A DNA stretch of 19,068 nt from a virus (Duplodnaviria > Heunggongvirae > Uroviricota > Caudoviricetes): the IMG/VR virus record IMGVR_UViG_2529293141_000023; one strand, 5' to 3'. Shown in pieces: positions 1 through 3,000 of the stretch. How positions within the stretch are numbered: position 1 is the stretch's first letter; the number at the start of each line of letters is the position of its first letter. The position numbers were made by a program.

Positions 1-3000
1 ATGGGGCGCTGGCTTGCTGGCAGACTCATGAAAGAGCTGGGGCTGGTCAGCTGTCAGCAGCCGACTTACCGGTATAAACGTGGTGGTCATGAACATGTTG
101 CTATCCCTAACTACCTTGAACGGCAGTTCGCCGTGACCGAGCCAAATCAGGTGTGGTGCGGTGATGTGACCTATATCTGGACAGGTAAGCGCTGGGCGTA
201 CCTCGCCGTTGTTCTCGACCTGTTCGCAAGAAAACCAGTGGGCTGGGCCATGTCGTTCTCGCCGGACAGCAGGCTTACCATGAAAGCACTGGAAATGGCA
301 TGGGAAACCCGTGGTAAGCCCGTCGGGGTGATGTTCCACAGCGATCAAGGCAGTCATTATACGAGCAGGCAGTTCCGGCAGTTACTGTGGAGATACCGGA
401 TCAGGCAGAGTATGAGTCGGCGTGGAAACTGCTGGGATAACAGCCCAATGGAGCGCTTCTTCAGGAGTCTGAAGAACGAATGGGTGCCGGCGACGGGCTA
501 TGTAAGCTTCAGCGATGCAGCTCACGCAATAACGGACTATATCGTTGGATATTACAGCGCACTAAGACCGCACGAATATAATGGTGGGTTACCACCAAAC
601 GAATCGGAAAATCGATACTGGAAAAAACTCTAACTCGGTGGCCAGTTTTTGTTGACCACTTCATCGGCGGCATTCAGGAGGATGAAAGACATTGTTTCGT
701 CATAGTCCATCGGCACACCGCGAGCCTCGAACATCCCCTGGTAGGCCAGAACAACGGAGACCTGAAGGTTTGCATGAGTGGTGCGGTTCTTTTCGGTGTA
801 CATGTTCACGGCGGCTTTCAACTCTAAAGCCTGCGAGGCGTCCATGACCTCCAGCTTATCGATCAGGCGTTCATTCTGTCGCATGATTCCATAGGCTGGC
901 TGTTCGGTACGGTTCAGGGCTTCGGTGATAGCCTCGACCTCTGCGGTCTTGTTCAGCTTCTTAAAACGGCTCCGTAACTCAATCAGGGATTTACGGGAAG
1001 TCAGACGCTGATCGACACGCCAGATAAGGGTGTCAACGTCGCTGTAATCGATTTTACTCATAGGGCTTGCAATCTCCGGGCAGAACATTTATCATTAAAT
1101 TGGGGAAATTGTACTCAATTACAACCCCGCATCACGTTGATTATTTTATCATGATTTCAATAGATTGACAATGGATTATTTGCGGCTGGGTTGATTTATC
1201 AAATCATGCGTATAACGAGCTGTAAGCGGTTCTGAGGGCCACCCTGTGGTGGTAGGGTCACCTGAGAGGAGATAACGCCATACAGCGCGTTAGGTATTGC
1301 CCTGTGGCGTCCGTGGGTATCACTCCGCGCCGGGCACCCCACCCCGCTGCCAGGTGTCACGGTTTCCCAAAGGCAGAAACAGAAACCGTGTTGCGGTTCT
1401 GGTTCTGCATTGCCCAAAGGAGGCTAACCCGTTGGGCGTAGCCTGTCCCAAGATCAGGAACGGATGTTCCTTACCTAAAGAGTCTTGCTTAATTAACAAT
1501 CAATTAATACTCACAATCTCTTTAAGGTCTTGCCCTGGTCCTGAGGGTTCTAGTTTTATCTGGTGTGGGTAGGTTTATCTATAGTCTTATTGTGTCTGAT
1601 TTCTTTACACCACGGTGTCGGGATTCTTTACACCAGATGTCACCTGCTGTCTGATTTCTTTACACCTCTGAAGATTCCCCGGTTTGTCGTGGCGTCTGAT
1701 TTCTTTACACCGGGAGATGAGCCAACAGGCTCGACTCCACATGTGGGAAACAGGCCCCGGCCTAAAACCTGGACCCGGACGGGTGAGCGTAGCGAAAGGT
1801 TTTAAGAGGCTAGAATTTAAGAGAGAAATAATTAAGAGCCTGAGCGATTAATTATTGAACGATTAAATTATAAGATTAATAAGACCGTAGCCCGGACGGG
1901 CGAGCGGAGCGAGGTCTTATATATCTATTATTGTCTAGTGTGTCCCAAAAGACACATAGCCCCCCCTGAGTCAGACCACCCACAAACCCACCGTAATCAC
2001 CCCCCACAAATTCATCTGATACACATCACGACGTAGAAGTCAACATATACCTGATCATTTTGTTGCAATTTTGCATAAATTATTGTAAAATATAGACATA
2101 GCGTGATGTAGTGAGCATGTCTACTCGGGATCTGGAAACCCGCCGTTTTGCAACTCATCGCGTCACGCTGTGTACAGAGTCGCAACGTGTGCTTAGCCGA
2201 GCAATCAAGATCTGTACGAGTGAGCCGGGCGGCTTCTCCTCCGCTCTGGTTCCTCACCCTGTGAGCCTTGAACAACTCCACTTGCCAGGGTTCACAGTGT
2301 GATGTTCCTCTCAAGATATCACGCGAGATCTCCTTATCTCAAAAGCCTCCCCGAAAGGGCACAATCCAACGGCGTGGTAACCGTGTGGATGATTAACCGT
2401 TTACGGTTTCCGGCGTGTTTCAGTTCACGCCGTTTTCCTCTGGTGTCTTGTCGATGAGTCGCCACAGGAAAACTCAAGCGATAAATCTCCTCTTATTAAG
2501 TCCACCCGGTAACCTTCCCGGGTTCTTTTTTTTGTGGGTATTTGCCAAAAGGTTGGCGCTATTGGCGTGACGCCGCCAGGGGCGGCAAGTATCCACACAA
2601 AAAGGGTTTACCCTTTCCCTCCACAGAGGTGTGGGATCGGGGCTGGTGATGGGGTCCATGATGGACCTCTGATCCTATTCGCTGCCTCTCTCCTGTATCT
2701 CTAATATCCGATCTGGAGTCTCCCCAACTCCCGGATTCTCCGGTGCAACGCCGGGTATCACTGCGCCCCTGTGCGCTTCTCCACTCCTCAAGGAAAATTC
2801 AATGAATGCTACTCCTCGTTACCCTGTGACCCAGGGCGACATCATCGTGAGCTATGCTAGCTCACTTTTTGACCGCACCGAAGTAACCGCCCCGGATGGT
2901 CTCCCCGATCACGTCGATTGTGGCGACATCCTGGACAGCAAAACTTTTGCCCTGTATGACTCATCCGCCGCTGACGCTGGCAAGCCGATCATTAACCTGT

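Follow-up and report, generated by a model that had tools for sequence, protein, structure and literature searches.

IS911 is an insertion sequence (IS) of the IS3 family that was first described in Shigella dysenteriae, and its insertion generates 3-bp duplications of the target. Members of this family are also associated with deletions. For IS3-family elements such as IS150, deletions that adjoin a pre-existing copy and carry no duplication are documented (PMC11708052). In the Escherichia coli long-term evolution experiment, the deletions adjacent to IS150 span up to tens of kilobases and leave a single IS at the joint, again with no duplication (PMC11708052). When one intact IS occupies a novel joint, its flanks derive from neighbouring loci and no duplication is present, this is the known signature of adjacent deletion or of recombination between two directly oriented IS copies. 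The locus beside the E. coli tRNA gene glyU is itself known for attrition, as the second type III secretion system of E. coli (ETT2) has been lost or eroded there in many lineages, with IS elements involved (PMC11068852). Here, we analyze a stretch of 19,068 nucleotides, referred to below as the window (IMG/VR record IMGVR_UViG_2529293141_000023, assigned to the Caudoviricetes), in which the right-hand part of an IS911-like element adjoins a truncated gene of an integrated element. The IS, an intact IS911/ISEc52 copy, very probably marks the joint of a chromosomal deletion of ~21 kb in an E. coli lineage.

The first 663 bp of the window (1..663, plus strand) are the right-hand part of an intact 1250-bp IS3-family element and cover IS positions 588-1250, window base 1 being IS base 588. 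They are 99.4-99.9% identical, across 668-677 bp, to annotated ISEc52 copies, the label being the RefSeq name 'IS3-like element ISEc52 family transposase'. Window 1-668 has matches in 4,124 of the 5,426 complete E. coli genomes, at a median of 2 and at up to 24 places per genome. The last 210 codons of orfB and its stop occupy 1..633 (plus strand) and encode the DDE/rve catalytic region of the transposase; in precomputed Pfam results, PF00665 (rve) and PF13683 (rve_3) match the exact 210-residue product of this interval (contig L004, 10429-11061). The 36-bp right inverted repeat (IRR) lies at 628..663 on the minus strand and reads TGAAGTGGTCAACAAAAACTGGCCACCGAGTTAGAG from the outside inward. 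It is identical at 36 of 36 positions to IRRb, the oligonucleotide that represents the right inverted repeat of IS911 in experimental use, and window 614-638 is identical at 25 of 25 positions to the IS911 primer O5 (both sequences from PMC2909936). Chance falls far short of explaining a 36/36 repeat match combined with 99.9% identity over 668 bp. The IS boundary is exactly 663, because an IS-free homologue aligns from 664 onward at 99.85% identity and has T before that base where the IS has A. The IS911-like label and the repeat end at 663 given in the initial annotation are therefore both correct.

The whole IS can be read in the source contig L003 (GCA_001188105.2, a 569-kb NCBI contig) at 10399-11648; in reverse complement, this contig shows 100% identity to the window over the 11,061 bases compared. 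In L003, the left inverted repeat (IRL) begins TGAAGTGGTTTACTGAATTTGGCCACC and the IRR begins TGAAGTGGTCAACAAAAACTGGCCACC, with their first 9 bases and bases 20-27 identical. The element thus has TG...CA ends and imperfect terminal inverted repeats of ~36 bp, as an IS3-family element does. Outside the window, L003 also holds a 100-residue orfA from IS position 73, an A6G -1 frameshift motif (A AAA AAG) at IS position 324 and a called fused transposase of 382 residues; this copy appears intact and potentially active. The 1250-bp length, the 36-bp IRR and 14 further internal bases, the TG...CA ends, the 100-residue orfA, the A6G -1 frameshift motif and the rve-domain orfB are all shared with IS911/ISEc52, where the comparison with IS911 proper is one with the published oligonucleotides and not with the IS911 type sequence. 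The IRL of IS911 may differ at a few positions from that of this copy; a literature search for the published IS911 IRL sequence gave no result. All testable defining features of IS911/ISEc52 are present except the target duplication. Unlike a typical IS911/ISEc52 copy, this one lacks a 3-bp duplication because it stands at a deletion joint, and the lack is no argument against its membership. A hybrid outward promoter that would use a -35 box in the IRR (TTGACC, 652-657) was sought by eye and rejected, since the hexamer 17 bp downstream is CAGGAG and a promoter scan gave no plus-strand site at this position.

The case for a deletion comes from the two flanks of the IS. On the far side, the two contigs L003 and L004 have ...ATGGGGCTTTGTAGTCGTTATAAAAGTCTTACATGCAATAG immediately before the IRL. 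This sequence comprises yqeH nucleotides 1-41, so that the IS abuts codon 14. Beyond yqeH follow the yqeH-yqeG intergenic region, yqeG, yqeF, kduI, kduD, a major facilitator superfamily (MFS) sugar transporter gene (araE in K-12), a racemase gene (ygeA), lysR and lysA. This flank is 99.96% identical to the yqeG-yqeH region of E. coli LR-29-1 up to yqeH nucleotide 41, and the IRR flank matches the integrated element from window 664 on. In LR-29-1, the two flanking loci lie ~21 kb apart. The 3-bp flanks of the IS differ, TAG on the IRL side versus TCG on the IRR side, with no target-site duplication; the structure is not that of a simple insertion. L003 and L004 are separate NCBI assemblies and share the same joint with one mismatch in 3.7 kb. 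In the coordinates of the LR-29-1 locus (L009), the segment 1144-22428, 21,285 bp in length, is replaced by the IS; it comprises ~9.3 kb of the rest of the element, including IS421, and ~12.0 kb of ETT2. The initial annotation had linked the IS to the loss of the rest of the element, and this link holds, with the loss reaching further, into ETT2. It had also proposed that the other IS end and its target-site duplication be sought in the full genome: the end was located, at yqeH codon 14, but there is no duplication.

The ancestral layout, taken from LR-29-1, would have been glyU, an integrated element of ~15 kb, the ETT2 remnant from ygeQ to yqeH, and yqeG, with the capsid and cargo genes of the element nearest the tRNA and its integrase at the far end. 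The present layout is glyU (with or without a second element), a remnant of 5.9 kb, the IS, yqeH reduced to its first 41 nt, and yqeG. In the proposed route, the IS would first have inserted at one of the two breakpoints, after which transposase action at the other IS end would have removed the adjacent DNA. It is equally possible that a second, directly oriented IS had inserted at the other breakpoint and that homologous recombination then occurred between both copies. Either route would leave one IS with its ends intact and its flanks non-matching. The precursor states sought were an IS in yqeH with a TAG duplication, for which the predicted junction is ...CAATAG-[IS]-TAGTTGCTC, and an IS in the 147-residue gene described below with a TCG duplication, for which it is ...ACTGTTCG-[IS]-TCGGCGG.

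Several points weigh against the deletion as reconstructed here. Its size is approximate, as the layout is taken from another strain and the real ancestor may carry a different ETT2 isoform, and the 21,285 bp in LR-29-1 coordinates include copies of IS421 and IS1. The far junction was read in two assemblies only, because the majority of contigs that carry the chimeric gene terminate within the IS. No precursor with the IS at either breakpoint and a matching duplication was present among the 5,426 complete E. coli genomes. Exact precursor patterns of 22-24 nt gave 0 matches in four of four scans of metagenome and species-representative genome collections, the latter a weak negative since such a collection holds one genome per species. 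Adjacent deletion and recombination between two IS copies are therefore equally possible routes, and the IS may have entered either breakpoint first. In the IS150 study, by comparison, the pre-existing copy was observed at an earlier time point, whereas no precursor is at hand for the window (PMC11708052).

The default expectation for an IS911-type element is simple transposition, in which the IS would have inserted in the 147-residue gene and the remaining parts of gene and element would continue beyond it after a 3-bp duplication, and in most of the contigs that carry the chimeric gene the far side is unseen because the contig breaks inside the IS. Both contigs that span the IS, however, continue on its far side with yqeH codon 14 and then with yqeG, yqeF and kduI; with TAG facing TCG, and with the predicted precursor junction (GCTCGAACTGTTCG directly before the IRL) found nowhere that was searched, we consider this explanation very improbable. 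The same two contigs bear on the idea that the joint is an assembly artefact, a mis-join through the repeated IS, such that the element and yqeH are not truly adjacent. The multi-copy nature of this IS lends that idea some plausibility, since assemblies of short reads frequently break or join wrongly at repeats of this kind, and of the six loci displayed for the chimeric gene, four do end inside the IS. The same join nevertheless occurs in two separate NCBI assemblies, and its flanks are natural neighbours at the glyU-yqeG locus, as a deletion predicts and unlike a random mis-join, which makes an artefact hardly credible.

Duplication-free flanks would also be produced by recombination between inverted IS copies, so that an inversion or translocation might have left the missing part of the element and ETT2 elsewhere in the genome beside another IS copy. 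Our reading is confined to ~20 kb around the joint, and the missing segment was not seen within it. Both flanks are, moreover, colinear with the reference locus, which matches the outcome of a deletion between direct repeats rather than that of an inversion, and we regard such a rearrangement as a very slight possibility. The deletion remains by far the preferred explanation, and as an event it belongs to a known class: ordinary genome erosion at a locus already known for attrition. Compared with the ETT2 attrition described beside glyU (PMC11068852), the difference is that the loss of ETT2 was here accompanied by that of the greater part of a separate integrated element, formerly situated between glyU and ETT2, and that only 41 nt of yqeH are left.

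The gene at the IRR side of the joint heads the leftward operon of the integrated element. Its native form, in the E. coli strains LR-29-1 and EEC_W5, encodes WP_032983047.1 (147 residues), with a start ATG equivalent to window 1061. In the window, 398 nt of it remain (664..1061, minus strand), with one synonymous mismatch to the LR-29-1 gene. The leftward open reading frame (ORF) crosses 664 into the repeat and stops at a TAG at 632-630, within the IRR. The resulting chimeric ORF (630..1061, minus strand; 143 codons and a stop), defined by ORF reading and homologue comparison, has native codons 1-132, a codon 133 that straddles the joint as GA/T, and codons 134-143 and the TAG from the IRR. 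The native gene runs 46 nt past window 664, and these missing 46 nt correspond to 15 codons and the stop, minus 2 nt. The native protein ends in ...LLNAAEQFERLTGGLPILVD (147 residues, WP_032983047.1) and the window protein in ...LLNAADEVVNKNWPPS (143 residues); after a common ...LLNAA, a conserved tail of 15 residues, EQFERLTGGLPILVD, is replaced by DEVVNKNWPPS, 11 residues encoded by the IS. An ORF can be drawn from ATG 1088, as in the initial annotation, but this start was rejected for the gene: RefSeq and the gene caller of the collection agree on 1061, and the Met at 1061 is where the alignments of all 14 family representatives begin; that the ORF reads into the repeat was seen correctly.

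The homologue family is very small. It accounts for 7 clusters in a set of 5.8 billion proteins and for 14 representatives in one of 1.84 billion; full-length members have 142-149 residues. All IS-free homologues keep the C-terminal motif xFExxTGELPV, even at 24-29% identity, so the IS took away a conserved part of the protein, and its function was likely lost through the truncation. The proposal that the native 3' end had been displaced is confirmed by WP_032983047.1, since the last 11 residues and the stop are IS-encoded, and the comparison with uninterrupted homologues that was suggested for this gene yields the 147-residue protein of LR-29-1 and EEC_W5 with its conserved tail. A homologue that has the window's C-terminus in IS-free DNA, which had been named as contrary evidence, cannot occur, because that C-terminus is IS sequence and the homologues carry the xFExxTGELPV tail. 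The 143-residue ORF should be annotated as a chimeric pseudogene and not as a native protein. Two sigma-70-like promoter matches lie upstream of the truncated gene (1143..1202, minus strand), each agreeing with the consensus at 10 of 12 positions and one with an extended -10 TG, as consensus matches only; the promoter scan found 3 sites where 0.8 were expected. With both promoter-like sites retained, the chimeric ORF probably remains transcribable into the IS. Also upstream of the truncated gene, window 1200-1480 is GC-rich and structured-looking, has no credible ORF and is a candidate non-coding RNA or regulatory region. No Rfam family reached its gathering score in the window, and positions 1-3000 gave only a chance-level microRNA match.

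The protein of the truncated gene had no match in PHROGs or PADLOC. An assignment to the Pfam family YhfZ_C was rejected, its 17.5 bits being below the cut-off of 35. The AlphaFold2 model, built with 7 sequences, is all-alpha (mean pLDDT 66.7, pTM 0.44), and a Foldseek search of this weak model against the Protein Data Bank (PDB) gave no match with an E value below 2.6.

To the right of the joint, 5.9 kb of the integrated element survive (664..6563), 99.85% identical to and colinear with LR-29-1 and EEC_W5; the identity is measured over window 664-6581 against these two complete E. coli chromosomes, both IS-free at this position. The remnant contains the truncated gene, ~1.7 kb of DNA that has iterons but no genes, a gene of 127 residues, a major capsid gene of the Phage_cap_E family, a gene of 66 residues, and two cargo genes of 262 and 204 residues, neither of which is matched in PADLOC. 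Its right boundary is an attachment (att) repeat at 6564..6587 (minus strand), found by sequence comparison to be a copy of the 3' end of the tRNA-Gly(CCC) gene glyU (22 of 24 bases, 18 of them contiguous). No tRNA gene lies within the window. At its far end, next to the integrase, the intact element has an identical 24-bp repeat (L009 10400-10423). In LR-29-1, this element spans glyU to the 24-bp repeat adjoining the tyrosine recombinase, ~15 kb including IS421. From glyU, its order is the genes of 204, 262 and 66 residues, the capsid gene, the 127-residue gene, 1.7 kb of gene-free DNA, the genes of 147, 86 and 56 residues, a helix-turn-helix (HTH) gene of 202 residues, genes of 42, 700 and 163 residues, small genes including one with DUF3606, IS421, the integrase and the 24-bp tRNA repeat. 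Beyond the element lie ygeQ and the ETT2 remnant through yqeH, and then yqeG. IS421 (L009 7809-8921) lies near the integrase end in the only intact copies among the complete E. coli genomes, and this intact reference may not be fully functional.

Among the products of the lost genes, the 202-residue HTH protein has a weak Rep/O-like match (PHROG, E 1.9e-5), and the integrase is a predicted tyrosine recombinase (Pfam, E 5e-10). The 700-residue protein matches PHROG tape measure protein (TMP) families with residues 1-120 (E 5e-13) and phi92 gp134 in the PDB with residues 144-572 (E 3.5e-5), gp134 having been identified in a paper as the phi92 tape measure protein; by these matches, the lost 700-residue gene is a predicted tape-measure homologue. 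The suggestion in the initial annotation that the rest of a morphogenesis module might have gone was thus a reasonable one. With the Rep-like HTH gene, the tape-measure homologue, the integrase and the distal att repeat lost, the element should no longer be capable of excision, replication or transfer. Four direct, irregularly spaced copies of GTCTGATTTCTTTACACC, iteron-like and seen by eye, lie at window 1590-1720 in the 1.7-kb gene-free region; standing beside the now-deleted Rep-like HTH gene, they are likely the replication origin of the element. For annotation, the left end of the element in the window is not its natural end, and the remnant is not to be counted among mobilisable satellites.

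The exact 143-residue chimeric protein is called on 17 public contigs and, as a junction, is absent from the 5,426 complete RefSeq E. coli genomes; GCA_001188105 and GCA_000942915 are assemblies of carrier strains. The remnant is directly beside glyU and actS in two of the loci (L004 and L008), is separated from glyU by a second element in the window and in three others (L003, L005 and L006), and is separated from it in L007 by a variant of the second element with 93-96% identity. The 17 contigs and the three arrangements at glyU indicate, at the level of sequence, a deletion inherited in a lineage that either predates the later acquisitions at glyU or is independent of them. The second integrative element, recognized by its gene content, occupies 6588-19068 in tandem at glyU and is absent from some strains that share the IS junction. 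Its genes encode a P4-type integrase (17815-19068, minus strand), a Rha-like protein (15756-17003) and a DUF927 primase/helicase-like protein of 712 residues (12749-14887), as well as SSB, PerC and antiterminator Q. As 6588-19068 is a different element, the element bounded by the IS is 664-6587 only. The window therefore holds two separate elements in tandem at glyU, and the proposal that the IS forms an eroded left boundary applies to the remnant up to its att repeat and not to the DNA beyond.

The eroded element at window 664-6587 represents a family of integrative elements that is rare and whose members measure roughly 12-15 kb. Intact copies at this locus occur in 2 of the 5,426 complete E. 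coli genomes (LR-29-1 and EEC_W5), and relatives occupy another chromosomal site in E. coli and Citrobacter. The intact relatives of the eroded element are L001/L009 and L010-L014. The conserved order is the integrase, variable cargo, a gene of 63-66 residues, the Phage_cap_E capsid gene (339-342 residues), a gene of 119-127 residues, 1.7-1.9 kb of gene-free DNA, genes of 141-147, 83-86 and 56-63 residues, the HTH gene (202-221 residues) and the tape-measure homologue of ~700 residues; a Phage_phiTE_211 gene occurs in some members as well. Against the phage capsids in the collection, the capsid protein reaches an identity of only ~23%. In the Citrobacter relatives, a 481-residue AAA_15/AAA_21 ATPase gene occupies the cargo slot beside the integrase (L013 5159-6604 and L014 1590-3035), where other genes stand in E. 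coli, which suggests a variable and possibly defence-related slot.

The non-coding segment at window 1847-1944 (...GAACGATTAAATTATAAGATTAATAAGACCGTAGCCCGGACGGGCGAGCGGAGCGAGGTC...) is 86-88% identical over 90-100 bp to a phage intergenic region in 24 records, and a second, degenerate copy lies at about 1766-1790. The 24 records are myophages of 145-150 kb of the Vequintavirinae/Certrevirus group, among them Cronobacter CR3, CR8 and PBES 02, Pectobacterium P7_Pc and DU_PP_I/IV, and Klebsiella KaOmega; in CR3, the sole record whose annotation was read, the matching segment lies between the divergent genes gp253 and gp254. One possibility is that the element took this segment from a helper phage as a signal for regulation or packaging.

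The closest described counterparts of the intact element are phage satellites, including phage-inducible chromosomal islands (PICI), their capsid-forming type and P4-like satellites, with which it shares a length of ~15 kb at a tRNA gene, a tyrosine recombinase, and iterons beside a Rep-like HTH gene, as well as a number of virion-gene homologues that is small and far too low for a phage. In the intact relative, each end bears the 24-bp tRNA-Gly repeat, a tyrosine recombinase is encoded, and the iterons adjoin the gene of the weak Rep/O-like HTH protein; missing from the window copy are the integrase, the Rep-like gene and one of the att repeats. The element gave no match to portal, protease, terminase, head-tail connector, Sid/Psu/Delta or AlpA-type proteins. 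Capsid-forming PICI (cf-PICI) carry their own full capsid and packaging set, whereas the element has the capsid gene alone of that set: in Pfam and PHROGs, the genes of the intact relative and of the window include none of the protease, portal, connectors, small terminase and HNH genes, and only Phage_cap_E is matched. A combination of a capsid gene and a tape-measure homologue only fits no satellite type known to us. The hints that induction, packaging and transfer would depend on a helper phage are indirect only and consist of the Certrevirus non-coding match and the tape-measure homologue of phi92-like phages. We put forward, as a speculation that is rather more likely to be wrong than right, that these elements form an undescribed Enterobacteriaceae family with a lambda-E-type capsid, a tape-measure homologue, iterons and a Rep-like gene, and would represent a new kind of satellite that remodels both head and tail of a large myovirus, the window holding an IS-fossilised member with a segment copied from a Certrevirus.

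By itself, the IS event is of little import, being one more IS3-family element at a deletion joint. The truncated element, which is rare and poorly annotated, is more interesting, and LR-29-1, EEC_W5 and the E. coli and Citrobacter relatives are the copies in which a capsid-plus-tape-measure family should be studied. If the speculation on a new kind of satellite holds, the truncated 147-residue gene would be the first gene of a helper-responsive operon, and the 99.85% identity of the remnant to the intact copies would mean either that the event was recent or that the capsid and cargo half has been retained for the benefit of the host.

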